From Dictyostelium discoideum (taxonomy: Eukaryota): a stretch of 64,000 nucleotides of DNA. This document shows, piece after piece, positions 17,973 through 61,364 of the stretch (within the stretch, counting starts at the first letter, position 1; every line of letters starts with the position of its first letter). The notes beneath the pieces are model-generated. The model had not been told where the DNA came from. It saw only the letters and a list, made by a program, of their open reading frames with translations, and did not search any database. A program made the position numbers and the translations under genes. The stretch spans positions 7,584,001 to 7,648,000 of the forward strand of contig CM000151.3 in the NCBI GenBank assembly GCA_000004695.1. Reading direction: 5' to 3'.

Positions 17973-19585
<1,613 letters not shown>

Positions 19586-20053
19586 TCTTTTAATATTATT
19601 ATTACTATTATTATCACTGCTACTACACTATATAAAAGTATTGTTTGTTTTTTTTTTTTTTTTTCTATTATTCGTTTTGTGTGTGTGAAGAAATAAAAAT
19701 AAAAAAATAAAAAATAAAAAAAAATAAAAAAATTTCAATCTAAAAAAAAAAAAAAAAAAAATAAAAATAAAATAAATTTAAAATTATAATATTAATTTAA
19801 ATAAAATAAATTAAAATAAAAAAAATATATATATATAAGATATTATAATAAAACAATTTAAATAATTAAAATTGAGAAAAAATAATAATTTTTCATCCAA
19901 ATATTGTTTATTTATGTTTATATATAGAATAAATAAAAAATGAAAAAAAAAAAAGCGGGAAAAAATAAAAATAACTAATTTTAGAAATACCCAAAACAAA
20001 ACCAACACACAATGACTTTTTTTTTTTTTTTTTTTTATTATTATTATGAATAT

Positions 20054-20790
20054 TTAATCATAACCAACTGGAATCATATCAGATAAAACTTCTTCTAAAA
20101 CTACTTTAATTTCTGAAGTTGAATCATCAGATAAAGTACATTTAACAAAAGTGCATTTAACTTTCATTTGAACCATTTCCAAAGCACCTCTCATTACACC
20201 ACATAGAATATTTGAATAGTAGAGTTTATGTTTATATTGATCTGGTAATTCGACGAAATCAATCAATGGATTATCTTCAATTGTTAAATGGAATTCCTTT
20301 CTATTTGCATCCCAATCACCAACATGAGCATTTACACCTAAAAACATTTTAAAACCAACTTTTGCAATAACTTCTGCTGTCTCTATAAAATCTGAACATC
20401 TACCAATACCTGATTTTGCTAAAAATTCTTCAATTAAACGAATTCCTATATTATATCCCATTTGTTCTAATTTTATATTAACTTGTTCAATATCTTCATA
20501 ATCTTTTATTAATTGTGTAACCAATGCTCCATATGTTAATGTGAATAATTCTGAATTCTATAATTTATTTAATTAATTAATTAATTAATTATGATTTTGA
20601 GATAATAAAAATAAAAATAATAATAATAATTTTTAAAAAAAAAAAAAAATAGTAATTAAAAATAAAAAAAAAAAATAAAAAAAAAAAAAAATGAAAATGG
20701 TAGCATATTTTTAAAAGAATTAAATCAACTTACAATTTTTTCAACTTTATTGAATACATCATTTCCTAATTTATCGTATTTTTTACTCAT
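20054..20790 (-). CDS. trappc3: TRAPP complex subunit Bet3 (TRAPPC3) ortholog; 2 exons (20790..20734, 20557..20054), 186 aa
   Basis: Exon 2 matches human TRAPPC3 almost residue for residue: ELFTLTYGALVTQLIKDYEDIEQVNIKLEQMGYNIGIRLIEEFLAKSGIGRCSDFIETAEVIAKVGFKMFLGV...LCGVMRGALEMVQMKV. Exon 1 is MSKKYDKLGNDVFNKVEKI, with donor GTAAGT (20733..) and acceptor aaattatag (AG 20559/20558). Confidence 0.9.
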
Positions 20791-21189
20791 TTTTTTGATT
20801 ATATTTTAAAATTTTATTATTATTATTAAAAGTACAAGATTGGGGTGTATATTATTAAATAAAAAATAAAAAAATAAAAATAAAAATAAAAAAAAATAAA
20901 AAAAAAAAAAAATAAAAAAAATAAACTTTCAAAAAAAAAATTAAAAAAAAAAATCTTTTCATGGTATTTTTTTTTTGTGTGTATTACCTTATAAATTTGG
21001 ATTAAAAAAAAAGGATAATTTTCCTATTGTTTTTATTATTTTTTTTTTTTATACATTGAAAATAAAAAAGGAAAAATTGAATAAAATTAAAAATTATTTA
21101 ATTTTATAAATAGAATTCACTTTATTCTTTTTTTGGCTTTTTGTCGAAACAAAGAATTTTCGCATTTTCATTGAATCACCCGGCCACTT

Positions 21190-21220
<31 letters not shown>

Positions 21221-21816
21221 ATCTGGTGTCTGGCTTATTTTTTTTAAAATTTTAATAAAATATCACTTCATTTAAAATATTGTAATTAAATTTTCAAGTA
21301 AATCAATAACCTTTTTTTTTTTTTCAAACTTTTTTGCATTAAAGTAAAAAAAAAAAAATAATAATACTTAATTGGAAAAAAGTAGAAATGCAAATATTCT
21401 TAGTTTCATAATCTTGGCAAAATATTTTTAGATTTGAAAAGAAATAAAAAAAAAAAAAATTAAAAAATAAAATAAAATTAAAAAAATTTAAAAAATTAAA
21501 AAAAAAACACAAAACAGACAACCGTTATATTTTTGGTGGACCAAAAATAATTATTTAATTTTTATTTTATTTTTTTATTTTTTTTTTCCACTTTTTTTAA
21601 TCACAAAAAAAAAAAAAAAAAAAAAAATCATTTTTCATAAAAAAAAAAAAAAAAAAAAAAAAAAATAAAATAAAATAAAATACATGTTATTTTATCTACC
21701 AAATTAACCTTTCCATTTTAATTTTTCTATATTCATTTTATTTTATTTTATTTTTTTTTTTTTTTCATACACGCACTCACATAATTTGACCATATCACTC
21801 ACTCACCCACCCATTC

Positions 21817-54954: not shown

Positions 54955-55970
<1,016 letters not shown>

Positions 55971-56977: not shown

Positions 56978-57136
56978 TTACCAATCTAATAAAAAAATAA
57001 ATTTAATATAAAACAAAATATTAATTTAAAATTAATTTTTATAAAAAAAAAAAAAAAAAAAAAAAAAATAGTAAATTGAATTAATTACTATTTTGCTTTT
57101 TTTTTTTTTTTAAAAAAAAAAGTAAATTAACTCATA

Positions 57137-59212
57137 ATGAGCATGAAAAAGTTTATGAATAAAATCTCGAATATGTTTGATGACTATTCTCACCAATCCA
57201 AACAATTACCAAGCCACCACCAAATTCCACAAAATCAACAATCAATGAATTACAATTCTCCAAACCCTGGAGTTTATAATATCCCAAATCAACAACATCC
57301 ACAATATCAACAACAACAACAACAACATCATCAGCAACAACAACAACAACAACAATATCAATACCAAAACCAAAGCCAACCTCCTCCATATGGCAATAGT
57401 TACCAAAATATGAACAAAAACTCACCCCAACCAGGTGTTTATAATAATAATAATAGTAATTCTCCAAAACAACAGCAACAACAATTCTGTTATCCTCCCC
57501 CACCACCAACATCTTCACATTCACAACAATTTACAAACTATTCTAATCATCAAGGATTACCATTACCACCACCTCCATTATCACCACCAATTAATAATAT
57601 AACAAATAATTATCATAATTATCATCACCACCATCATCATTATGATAACAATAATAACAATAATAATAATGGTAATTATCAAATAAACCCATCACAACCA
57701 ATATCACCATTACAACAAACAAATAAATTATCACCAACAATTACTGGTTCAGGTTCAATTTCAAGATATTCACCACCAAATTCAAGAAATAGTAATAATA
57801 ATTATCAACAACCAAAACAAGCTGTTAATCCAATTCCAGGTGCATATGGTGATGGTATTCATGATGATACTCAAGCAGTTTTAAATTATTTTAATACCTT
57901 TCCAACCAATGTTATTAATATACCACCTGGTAATTATTTAATAACTGCTCCATTGATCATTAAAAAGAATAATATTCAATTAATGGGTTCACCAAATGTA
58001 AAGTTTTTAACTAATTTCCCAATTTGGTTAACACCACCACTTTCCGAAGGTTTTATTAATACAGAAGAGTATGTATTCGTATTGACTGGTGATAACATTG
58101 TACTGGACTCAATTAATTGTTCATGTATAACTGCTGGTAGTTTATCATCATCATTTTTATATCTCTGTGGTAACGGTTTCATAATGAGAAATTGTATCAT
58201 TGATAATTTCAATCAAGGTGTTGTATTTGGTATACTAAATGATTGCAGTGGTAAAATTCCACCTGGTAGTCATTTCACAAATATCAAAATCACAGCAAAC
58301 CAAATCACAAATGTAATGGGTATTGCAGGTGGTAGTATATGTTACGGCGATGGTATTTCCTTTTTTGGTTGTTCAAATGTAGTAATCTCAAATAATTTCG
58401 TATCGGCAAAGGATGGATTCACACCTAGAAATGGTATAAACAGTGGTCCTGAAGGTTTCCTACCCTCTACAAACGTTCAAGTCATTAATAATACAATTCG
58501 TGGTGATTGGGATTATTCGTTAACCACTGAGGGTGGCAATCAATGTACAGTTAGTAATAATGATATCCAAGGTAGTTGTATTTGTGGTATCATTGAAAGA
58601 GGTACCGGTATTAAAGTTTCAAATAATACAATTCATATCATTGGAAGAGAGAAAGAAGGTCAAACTGAACCAACCGGAATTCAATTTTATGGTGTAGACA
58701 ATGGTGAAATCTCAAATAACTCCATCATGGGTAGTGCTAAATATGCCATTCTAATTAAACCATCACATGAAAGTGGAGGTGCTTCAAACTCTGTAGTTGA
58801 GAACAATACCATCGATGGCGAATTCTATAATTGTATATTTATGTCAAATGCAAATCAAGCTAAAATCCATGGAAATGTAGTTATGGGTAAAAGTGATGTT
58901 GACTCTTGTGTTGGTCTTCAAGTATGGTATTCCAATGGTTTAGATATTCAAGGTAATAATATAGATTTACCATCAGGTACAGCTTGTATTTGTTCAGGTG
59001 CTAAAAATGTAAATGTCCTCTCAAATACTATGATGACTTCAAGAGCTGGCTTTTATATTTGTCAAGGTAGTGATGATATTTGTATAGAAAATAATGATTT
59101 AATTGGTGTTACTCAAACTAAATTTGATCAATCGTCCGATAATAAATCTGTTACAACTAGTCAAAATTATGGTTTAGATTACAATCCACCATCAAATAAT
59201 TATAATAATTAA
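57137..59212 (+). CDS. protein with a Q/N/P/Y-rich prion-like N-terminal half (PPxY motifs) and a C-terminal right-handed parallel beta-helix (pectate-lyase-superfamily-like) domain, 691 aa
   Basis: N-terminal half: [55 protein letters not shown]. From about residue 225: AYGDGIHDDTQAVLNYFN (as in the GDG-x-DDT-x-A-hq start of Pectate_lyase_3-type domains), then repeated beta-helix rungs (ISNNFVSAKDG, VINNTIRGDWD, VSNNDIQGS, VSNNTIHIIG, ISNNSIMGSAKYAILI, VENNTIDGEFYNCIFMSNANQAKIHGNVVMG, IQGNNIDLPSG, LSNTMMTSRAGFYICQG). No N-terminal signal peptide is visible. Confidence 0.65.
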   Translation: MSMKKFMNKISNMFDDYSHQSKQLPSHHQIPQNQQSMNYNSPNPGVYNIPNQQHPQYQQQQQQHHQQQQQQQQYQYQNQSQPPPYGNSYQNMNKNSPQPGVYNNNNSNSPKQQQQQFCYPPPPPTSSHSQQFTNYSNHQGLPLPPPPLSPPINNITNNYHNYHHHHHHYDNNNNNNNNGNYQINPSQPISPLQQTNKLSPTITGSGSISRYSPPNSRNSNNNYQQPKQAVNPIPGAYGDGIHDDTQAVLNYFNTFPTNVINIPPGNYLITAPLIIKKNNIQLMGSPNVKFLTNFPIWLTPPLSEGFINTEEYVFVLTGDNIVLDSINCSCITAGSLSSSFLYLCGNGFIMRNCIIDNFNQGVVFGILNDCSGKIPPGSHFTNIKITANQITNVMGIAGGSICYGDGISFFGCSNVVISNNFVSAKDGFTPRNGINSGPEGFLPSTNVQVINNTIRGDWDYSLTTEGGNQCTVSNNDIQGSCICGIIERGTGIKVSNNTIHIIGREKEGQTEPTGIQFYGVDNGEISNNSIMGSAKYAILIKPSHESGGASNSVVENNTIDGEFYNCIFMSNANQAKIHGNVVMGKSDVDSCVGLQVWYSNGLDIQGNNIDLPSGTACICSGAKNVNVLSNTMMTSRAGFYICQGSDDICIENNDLIGVTQTKFDQSSDNKSVTTSQNYGLDYNPPSNNYNN

Positions 59213-59320: not shown

Positions 59321-60893
59321 TTAAAAAATTGAAGCTGTTGTTCCGCCACATGTATTTGATGTACATGCTTCATTAAAATTGTTATTATTATTGTTGTTGT
59401 TATTAAAATTATTATTGTTAAATTGAAAATTAAAAAATTGTTGTTGTTGTTGTTGTTGTGGTTGTATTGGATGAAAATTAAAATTTTGTTGTTGTAATGT
59501 TTGATTAAATAATTGATTATTTTGTTGTTGTTGTTGTTGTTGTTGAGGTAATTGTTGTTGTTGTTGTTGTTGTTCAGTATAAGATTTTGACTTTTTTAAT
59601 AAATTAATATTAAAATCACAATTAATAAAACTATTTAAAGTAGAGAGTGGACCATCAATTTGATATTTTGATTCTAAATGTAACCAATTGATATCAGAGA
59701 ACCATTTATGATTTCTAATGGAACAAGAATCAAAAGTACCCAATCTTTTTGAAGGATCAACAGAGAGTAATTGAAAGATGAAATCTTTAATTTCATCAGA
59801 TAAATAAGAGTTTTGAAAAATCAATTGGAAATCAGCCTTTCTATTTAATAAGGATTCCTTTGAATTGGAGAATGGTAATTTACCAGTGACCAACTCATAG
59901 ACTACAACACCCAAAGCCCACCAATCAACTGGTTTACCATGACCATTGCTTGAATTTAAAATTTCAGGTGCCATATAATCAAAGGTACCACAAACTGAGC
60001 TTGTATTCTTACCGCCGACAGTTTTTTTTGAAAAACCAAAGTCTGTCAATTTGATGTGACCCTTTTCATCGATTAATATATTCTCTGGTTTTAAATCACG
60101 GTATATTATATTTTCTGCGTGTAAATATTCAATGGCAAGTACGATTTCCGCAACGATTAATTTGGTAGTTTGTTCAGTGAAACATTTATTTGCACGAAGG
60201 TGATGGAATAAATCTTTTTTACCGGCATATTCCATTATGAAATGAATTTTAGTTGGTGTATTGAATGTGGAATAGGTTTTGACAATGTATGGATGACTGA
60301 TATTGAGCATGATATTGATTTCATTGTTTACATGCTCCTTATGTTTCTCATGGACAATCGTTTCACGACGTAATGTTTTACTACAGAAAAAGAGGCCACT
60401 ACCACGATGTCTACAAAGTTTAGCAGTACCAAATGATCCTGATCCAAGACTACCATAAAAGTTAAAATCGGATATTTTTGTTCTTTTCCAGTCAATATTT
60501 TCAACTGGATCAATTGATCCATCAAGATAAAATGGTGGTGGAATATTAACAATTGGTGATGAACATATTATTGGTTGTTTTGGAATATCATAAAAATTAT
60601 TTAAATTTGGTTGTGTTGTTGAAAATTGTAAACTTTGATTTGTTTGTTGAGAATTTTGTAAAAAATTATTATTTATTATATTATTATTATTATTATTATT
60701 ACTATTATTATTGGAATTATTATTATTTTGTAATTGTTGATTAAAATTATCTTGTGAAAGTGTAAAATTTGGATGAAATGGAATTGATGATGTTGTTGGT
60801 GATGATGGTGATGAATGTGATGGTGTTGAATTTGATGATGGTGCATTATAAAATTGTTGTTGTTGATTATTATTGTTATTATTGTTATTATTG

Positions 60894-60927
<34 letters not shown>

Positions 60928-61122
60928 CATTGTTAATCATATTACAACTATTATTAAGTGAAATATTATTATTACTTAAATCTAATGGTTGCATATACTC
61001 CATTGTTTCGAATGGAACCTCGCATGATAAACCTTTTAGCATTGGTGCTGGTGGTGGAGTATATAATTTATAATTATCATTTATTATAATTTGTGGTGTA
61101 TTAAAATTATTATTATTATTAA

Positions 61123-61191
<69 letters not shown>

Positions 61192-61364
61192 TAATATTAT
61201 TATTAATATTATTATTAATATTATTTAAATTTTTTGTTAGTGTTTCTAATAAGGATTTTATCGTTTTTACCAAAGATTTATTAATCTCACTGGAATTTTG
61301 ATTATAATCAAAAATTGGTTCATTAAATTCCTGTTTTTTTTGGATAAAAAAAAATTGTGGATTT

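Follow-up and report, generated by a model that had tools for sequence, protein, structure and literature searches.

A leaderless, tailspike-like beta-helix protein of Dictyostelium discoideum and its apparently Eumycetozoa-restricted family

In a 64,000-nucleotide stretch of the Dictyostelium discoideum genome (assembly GCA_000004695.1, contig CM000151.3, forward-strand positions 7,584,001 to 7,648,000; hereafter the window), we analysed a gene whose product joins a disordered N-terminal region to a right-handed parallel beta-helix. The encoded protein is identical to D. discoideum AX4 XP_642690.1 / EAL68841.1 / UniProt Q86K88, from an 8.48-Mb contig (chromosome 2); its sole database annotation is 'carbohydrate-binding domain-containing protein', presumably derived from the CASH domain. 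The C-terminal domain is confirmed as a pectate-lyase-fold, tailspike-like beta-helix, and the gene, as it stands, is well-defined, conserved and uncharacterised. Sequence comparisons assign it to a small and hitherto undescribed family, restricted to Eumycetozoa, whose members are tailspike-like beta-helix proteins without leader. We see about an even chance that this family is of bacterial or phage tailspike descent, that its helix binds a polymer, probably a polysaccharide, and that residues of its groove cleave or modify that polymer.

The beta-helix and its conserved polar strip

Two Pfam models match the 691-residue protein significantly: Beta_helix PF13229 (75.5 bits against a cut-off of 25.9, E 4.7e-21) and, over residues 488-675, NosD PF05048 (52.3 bits against 23.6, E 6.5e-14). 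No other Pfam model reached significance, and an NCBIfam scan gave zero matches. An earlier note on this DNA, written from the letters and reading frames only, had proposed a search with PF13229 and PF12708 (Pect-lyase_RHGA_epim, or 'Pectate_lyase_3'): the former scores above its cut-off, but the latter is unreported for the D. discoideum protein even at E<=1. PF12708 is on record for the family members P0009-P0011, P0013 and P0015 (P numbers are our labels for individual proteins, L numbers for contigs).

The AlphaFold2 (AF2) model of residues 221-691, built from a 15-sequence family alignment, is confident and all-beta, with short strands stacked into rungs (mean predicted local distance difference test score, pLDDT, 90.6; predicted template modelling score, pTM, 0.90). 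The rungs are three-stranded coils with an asparagine ladder, similar to solved beta-helices. Foldseek searches against PDB and BFVD return the same beta-helix classes at 9-18% identity, and the PHROG matches of the domain are 'tail spike protein' families. The rung motif [IVLMF]x[NGSD]Nx[IVLMF]x is found in 12 copies spaced by 22-32 residues, as opposed to 1.7 +/- 1.3 copies in shuffled sequences. Since Pfam, AF2, Foldseek, PHROGs, the rung motif and the N-terminal cap (Table 1) all agree, the pectate-lyase-fold helix can be taken as confirmed. The earlier reading of the C-terminal ~460 residues as a right-handed, tailspike-like beta-helix with stacked asparagine rungs is upheld, also by the structure prediction that had been suggested as a check. 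The cap had been written as GDG-x-DDT; the motif is indeed there, with two variable positions instead of one.

In the 15-sequence alignment, where identities go down to 32%, 61 columns are invariant, and the charged and aromatic ones among them are concentrated in the central six rungs. The invariant polar set comprises D405, R431, N432, N435, E439, D457, W458, D459, Y460, T463, T464, E465, E487, R488, Y518, S543, H544 and E545. Beyond the asparagine ladder and glycines, the invariant motifs are GGSIxxGD(G/A)IxFF, TPRNGINSGPEG, GDWDYxxTTEGG, IIERG and PSHE. Following the DSSP assignment of the AF2 model, the invariant polar residues occupy one strand position in six successive rungs, or the loops flanking it, and the asparagine ladder is located in the turn between the remaining two strands. 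In beta-helix enzymes, the PB1 sheet is the face that forms the substrate groove, and in pectate lyase C the asparagine ladder lies in turn T2. Should the ladder turn of the Dictyostelium model be T2 as well, the strand carrying the invariant residues would be PB1; we infer from this pattern that the strip is the canonical substrate groove. A polymer-binding, probably catalytic, groove is thus likely on the model.

Counterparts of D405, R431 and E465 are also present in the bacterial and phage outgroup, whereas PRNGIN and IIERG are missing from all 137 outgroup representatives. Within the family, few of the invariant polar residues survive in the Physarum proteins P0019 and P0021: N432 is changed to S, the GPEG loop is gone, DWDY is replaced by NWLC or NWEC, and IIERG by IQALG or IFARG. 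The two may form a diverged subfamily, either of non-catalytic paralogs or of proteins with altered specificity.

The N-terminal region and the absence of a leader

Residues 1-232 are rich in Q (19%), N (18%), P (14%), S (11%), Y (7%) and H (6.5%). In the full-length AF2 model, residues 1-227 stay below a pLDDT of 50, the one exception being a weakly predicted helix at 4-14. The N-terminal ~220 residues are hence disordered and Tyr/Gln/Pro-rich, as the earlier note had described them, and with 37% Q+N over 232 residues the region forms a Q/N-rich, low-complexity segment well over 60 residues long. The same note had called the segment 'prion-like'. The composition fits that label, but the label says nothing beyond composition: Q/N-rich prion-like regions are present in ~24-25% of the D. 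discoideum proteome (PMC11537047, PMC13093961), so that by itself it is unremarkable in this organism.

The disordered region has many indels, and its alignable codons are under purifying selection: relative to D. citrinum and D. firmibasis, the dN/dS ratio (omega) is ~0.15 there and 0.05-0.06 in the helix. The islands PPLSPP and KLSPT are kept in D. discoideum, D. citrinum, D. firmibasis and D. purpureum. Three PPxY-like motifs had been claimed earlier; we find a single strict one, PPPY, as the further proline runs YPPPPP and LPPPPLSPP are not PPxY. It is absent in Polysphondylium violaceum, Cavenderia fasciculata and Heterostelium album. The idea of a WW-domain/NEDD4 ligand, resting on this one motif kept in five of eight dictyostelids, is weak, and the literature on PPxY and NEDD4 in Dictyostelium yielded nothing that bears on it. 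A duplicated NSP(N/Q)PGVYN, perhaps a linear motif based on Tyr, is found at window positions 57254-57295 (residues 40-53) and 57419-57451 (residues 95-105); D. purpureum has a similar SPYPGCY.

A basic amphipathic motif sits within the first 12-14 residues of most members that have an N-terminal extension, with MKKFMNKISNMF in D. discoideum and the related MKRLSRKVSSLF, MKKITKKISTIF and MKKIKEKINKIL in distant relatives of ~500 residues. Its hydrophobic moment is 0.67-0.83 in six of seven sequences, a value equalled by 0.4-1.5% of shuffles; the corresponding motif of P0012 is not amphipathic. It looks like a conserved targeting or regulatory helix. The spacer between this motif and the beta-helix measures 75-89 residues in the environmental group and 196-377 in Dictyostelia, and Tyr makes up 7-11% of it in members having one. 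Clastostelium, Physarum, P0013 and P0015 have only 15-34 residues before the helix. Because the extension of non-dictyostelid members is 15-89 residues long and not Q/N-rich, we view the Q/N segment as a repeat expansion: the disordered region looks like an older Tyr-rich linker, with a few short motifs in it, that was enlarged in a manner typical of the lineage.

No signal peptide or transmembrane segment is visible in the D. discoideum protein by hydropathy: the maximum Kyte-Doolittle value is 1.3 for any 19-mer and, within the first 40 residues, 0.24 for any 9-mer, leaving no hydrophobic leader. The in-frame TAA stop just 5' of the ATG (Table 1) makes an upstream in-frame extension impossible without splicing, and a transcript-like contig likewise has an in-frame stop 5' of its MKR start. 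Hydrophobic N-termini are found in 0 of 11 family members versus 65 of 137 outgroup proteins, and no family member has a signal peptide, transmembrane segment or lipidation motif. By hydropathy, upstream stops and N-termini alike, this is not a classically secreted protein, and the lack of a signal peptide noticed earlier in the single sequence extends to the whole family.

Three observations concern individual gene models and contigs. The Logan contig L003, considered as transcript evidence, was rejected: it continues into the neighbouring gene and is therefore genomic. In D. firmibasis (L006 2952-3000), MNMKKFMNKISN is encoded in frame directly 5' of the annotated methionine of P0003; the annotated start is truncated, and the genome encodes the N-terminal motif upstream of it. 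The gene model of C. fasciculata P0007 opens with 'MYLLVLVVSF', an unrelated, hydrophobic stretch that is perhaps due to a wrongly called first exon.

Family, genomic setting and origin

A homolog search over 5.8 billion clusters recovered orthologs from D. citrinum, D. firmibasis, D. purpureum, P. violaceum, C. fasciculata, H. album and one further dictyostelid-like sequence, along with relatives of ~500 residues from metagenomes and transcriptomes. An exhaustive profile search over 1.84 billion representatives yielded 13 clusters at E<=1e-30; at weaker E values they are followed, without a clear break, by generic beta-helix proteins (18,420 at E<=1e-3). A second, word-indexed homolog search with the profile found no additional members. 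Clastostelium recurvatum and Physarum polycephalum are further named members, so that all named ones are Eumycetozoa (all dictyostelid groups, Clastostelium and Physarum), accompanied by a few environmental sequences. The family thus spans the Eumycetozoa and is very rare elsewhere. Each dictyostelid species contributed a single cluster, so the gene appears to be single-copy.

The gene follows its host in codon usage, as the earlier note had stated: the GC content of third codon positions is 0.16-0.18, against 0.15 in the adjoining kinase gene, and the correlation of relative synonymous codon usage is 0.87. A convergent protein-kinase gene stands downstream in both D. discoideum and D. purpureum. 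At the same position, D. citrinum and D. firmibasis have a convergent gene for a protein of 752-762 residues without recorded Pfam match, whose identity as a kinase is unconfirmed. Orthologs, synteny, host-like codons and low dN/dS together indicate an old, vertically inherited and constrained gene.

The nearest full-length relatives outside the family, with E values of 1e-21 to 1e-30 against the family profile, are Paenibacillus oleatilyticus MFB0847340.1 and Priestia WP_340926278.1, together with P0023, P0027 and P0028. P0028 carries a Tat-like signal; P0027 and P0029 have a C-terminal extension in common, and in P0027 this C-terminal module matches Dickeya and Brucella phage tailspikes. A tblastn search with the Dictyostelium domain gave weak matches to Bacillus phages, and the best non-eukaryotic matches are at ~22-26% identity. 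Motif scans found no family motifs in 185,579 GTDB species genomes or in IMG/VR. The Bacillota relatives, themselves uncharacterised, have equivalents of G404-D405, R431 and E465 in common with the Eumycetozoa family but not its motifs.

Among known systems, the phage tailspikes and capsule depolymerases (cyanophage Pam1 tailspike 7EEA, Klebsiella K1 lyase 7W1C, phi29 gp12) resemble the Dictyostelium protein in having a helix with the GDGxxDDT cap, and the 'putative pectate lyase' of Bacillus phage Goe8 reaches a TM-score of 0.73 to its domain in BFVD. Unlike them, the Dictyostelium protein has neither a virion-attachment domain nor a phage context: it is eukaryotic, leaderless and vertically inherited in a syntenic chromosomal setting, it carries a disordered N-terminus in place of a particle-binding domain, and it has an invariant set of its own (TPRNGINSGPEG, GDWDYxxTTEGG, IIERG, PSHE) that is found in 0 of 137 outgroup representatives.

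A Eumycetozoa-restricted family whose nearest relatives are bacterial or phage, whose members are leaderless and whose motifs were not found in GTDB species genomes or IMG/VR fits a gene taken up long ago from a bacterial or phage source, at the base of Eumycetozoa or earlier. We put this forward provisionally: the old horizontal acquisition suggested in the earlier note is consistent with the restricted distribution, with the Paenibacillus, Priestia and phage relatives and with the synteny kept later. A recent bacterial or phage transfer, or an assembly contaminant, can be rejected with near certainty: the gene is intronless and its domain bacterial/phage-like, but orthologs in all dictyostelid groups, conserved downstream synteny, host-like codon usage, the empty motif scans and the low identity of non-eukaryotic matches all speak against it.

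One member deserves separate mention. P0015 (10001-11374 of L001 1-21374, ENA ERZ28597098 scaffold_76) is without N-terminal extension and lies on a contig of 70-124 kb with 26-30% GC and ~27 intronless genes per 21 kb, most of which have no Pfam match. These include tandem leucine-rich-repeat paralogs with conserved ends (18397-21369, minus strand), a PARG-like gene and DUF4246. The contig looks giant-virus-like, or else like a compact protist genome; it shows no enrichment of the Mimivirus early-promoter motif, and no relatives of it were found in IMG/VR. Should the contig be viral, members of the family would have crossed between amoebae and the viruses that infect them.

The features of the gene and its surroundings are collected in Table 1. 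DNA of the window is dictyostelid in character, with ~14-32% GC and poly-N/Q coding tracts, and the 1.1 kb 5' of the gene is A/T-rich intergenic DNA without open reading frame (ORF). On the other side, the stop codons of the beta-helix and kinase genes are 108 bp apart. A mostly poly-Ile ORF of 92 residues at 55502-55780 (plus strand) is an artefact of an intergenic (ATT/ATA)n simple repeat and no gene; the antisense ORFs 57153-57524 and 57976-58212 (minus strand) are low-complexity mirror ORFs.

Table 1. Coordinates of the beta-helix gene, its parts and its neighbour in the window (aa, amino acid residues; CDS, coding sequence).
Feature	Coordinates	Strand	Basis
Complete intronless CDS, 691 aa + stop	57137..59212	+	Uninterrupted ORF; identical to XP_642690.1
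In-frame TAA stop, 3 codons 5' of ATG	57128..57130	+	Sequence reading
Intrinsically disordered region, aa 1-232, Q/N/P/S/Y/H-rich	57137..57832	+	Composition, AF2, omega ~0.15
Basic amphipathic motif MKKFMNKISNMF, aa 3-14	57143..57178	+	Conservation; AF2 helix 4-14, low confidence
Sole strict PPxY (PPPY), aa 82-85	57380..57391	+	Kept in 5/8 dictyostelid orthologs
His run HHHHHH followed by Tyr, aa 163-168	57623..57640	+	Run of at least 3 His in 7/8 dictyostelid orthologs and P0012
Right-handed parallel beta-helix domain, aa 233-685	57833..59191	+	Pfam, AF2, omega ~0.05-0.06
N-terminal cap motif GDGIHDDT (G238-T245), aa 238-245	57848..57871	+	GDGxxDDT start common to GH55, GH87, AlgE and tailspikes
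Central six rungs, aa 405-545, with family-invariant polar residues; putative substrate groove/active site	58349..58771	+	Alignment, DSSP pattern
Convergent protein kinase gene	59321-61273	-	Pkinase 5.3e-78 at ORF aa 272-525; long poly-N/poly-Q flanks

Possible functions and their alternatives

Our preferred explanation, with chances we judge to be evenly balanced, starts from a bacterial or phage ancestor of the tailspike/depolymerase kind. The C-terminal helix would bind an extended polymer, most probably a polysaccharide, and hold it in the groove of one beta-sheet and the flanking loops along about six rungs. The carboxylates, arginines, His, Trp and Tyr of the groove would then cleave or modify the polymer, in a reaction of hydrolase, lyase or epimerase type. 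The basic amphipathic helix and the Tyr/Gln/Pro-rich linker, greatly expanded in Dictyostelia, would serve localisation, regulation or partner binding and not catalysis. As no member has a signal peptide, the protein should be made in the cytosol; it may act there or on a membrane surface, or exit by a non-classical route. The glycan nature of the substrate, catalysis, location and the origin by transfer are all what we infer from sequence and model.

Several points weigh against this explanation. The earlier note had suggested inspecting the catalytic Asp/Arg constellation: invariant residues such as D405 and R431 do line up on one strip, but the signatures of AlgE/AlgG (DPH[DE]), PL1 (vWiDH, RxPxxR) and GH28 (NTD, RIK) are all absent from the protein. 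In a profile search of PDB sequences, solved enzymes resemble the protein only in the N-terminal cap and in generic rungs, and the best Foldseek match in PDB is a non-enzymatic adhesin, PfbA. The groove argument itself is built on periodicity and the DSSP pattern. Cytosolic CASH domains of other eukaryotes are known as binders of proteins, not of glycans, and we know of no obvious polysaccharide substrate in the Dictyostelium cytosol except glycogen. Finally, literature searches returned no expression, localisation or phenotype data for the gene. Queries with Q86K88, XP_642690 and EAL68841 found no publication; those on right-handed beta-helices, the pectin lyase fold and horizontal transfer to amoebae found nothing relevant to it, nor did the supplements of Dictyostelium prion-like-protein studies. 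A match to the phrase 'carbohydrate-binding domain-containing protein' was discarded, as it concerns another gene, DDB_G0293762.

Comparison with characterised beta-helix proteins places the gene product within the superfamily and, as far as sequence can tell, outside PL1, GH28, AlgE/AlgG and true NosD. With the AlgE4, AlgE6 and AlgG epimerases and PL6 alginate lyases, the cap aligns but no similarity extends past it; those enzymes are secreted or periplasmic, and the epimerase pattern YG(F/I)DPH(D/E) is not found in the Dictyostelium protein. For the GH87 alpha-1,3-glucanases (7C7D, 5ZRU), the profile matches the cap at 6.2e-8, and only the N-terminal ~80 residues align. There is no Pec_lyase_C match at E<=1 that would accompany PL1, and no Glyco_hydro_28 match among Pfam models. 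The PF05048 match to NosD/CASH proteins reflects generic rungs in a different architecture: NosD is a periplasmic partner of NosFY, whereas the Dictyostelium protein is leaderless and comes from a eukaryotic cell, which lacks a periplasm, its gene neighbours being a protein kinase and unrelated genes, with neither a nos operon nor NosFY partners.

The foremost alternative, possible though clearly short of an even chance, is that the helix serves for binding or as a scaffold without catalysis, much as CASH domains or PfbA do, and that together with the short linear motifs of the disordered N-terminus it makes an intracellular adaptor or condensate component. This would suit a leaderless protein with a long, partly constrained disordered region containing conserved islands and short motifs (PPPY, proline runs, the His run, Tyr-rich repeats). 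It would also suit the lead of PfbA among Foldseek matches, the absence of known catalytic signatures and the persistence of the Physarum paralogs P0019 and P0021 after loss of most invariant polar residues. Yet so dense a set of invariant Asp, Glu, Arg and His residues along one strip, at 32% identity and with omega ~0.05, is rather what an active site shows than what a surface for protein binding does. Three residues of the strip are moreover common to bacterial and phage relatives, and about half of the 137 outgroup proteins have signal- or transmembrane-like N-termini.

A second alternative, which we regard as doubtful, retains the enzyme but moves it to the extracellular space or a compartment lumen: exported without a classical leader, it would target spore-coat, stalk or slime-sheath polysaccharide, or ingested bacterial polymers. 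Dictyostelium does export discoidins, DdCAD-1 and AcbA in such a way; the named family members all come from fruiting-body-forming Eumycetozoa, and the closest relatives, from phages and Bacillota, belong to a class degrading bacterial capsule, exopolysaccharide or teichoic acid. The helix domain is acidic (38 D+E versus 21 K+R), which, speculatively, would fit cationic or neutral glycans such as galactosamine-containing polymers. Against export stand the lack of any signal peptide, transmembrane segment or lipidation motif across the family, and the Q/N/Y-rich disordered region with its His run, which is more typical of nucleo-cytoplasmic proteins.

More specific, and in our view improbable, is a domesticated phage or bacterial depolymerase of capsule, exopolysaccharide or teichoic acid that was kept leaderless for intracellular action, for instance as an immune effector, or for action on an unrecognised cytosolic glycan. 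As an effector, it would strip surface polysaccharide from bacteria that enter the cytosol or damaged vacuoles. Its recruitment to membranes or condensates would be the task of the amphipathic N-terminal helix and the Tyr-rich disordered region.

We think it very improbable that the N-terminal segment is a true prion domain switching the enzyme between soluble and aggregated states: its Q+N and Tyr content and predicted disorder would allow it, but about a quarter of D. discoideum proteins have such regions (PMC11537047, PMC13093961), the short extensions of non-dictyostelid members are not Q/N-rich, and 14% proline disfavours amyloid.

Returning to the putative polysaccharide-active groove, its consequences would reach beyond a single gene. 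If the groove is catalytic, the family would constitute a lineage-specific group of carbohydrate-active enzymes not obviously covered by existing CAZy signatures, of phage tailspike-like ancestry and made in the cytosol of fruiting-body-forming amoebae. It would then offer an entry to non-classical export of glycan enzymes in Dictyostelium, to an unknown intracellular glycan, or to the reuse of phage depolymerases by predators of bacteria.

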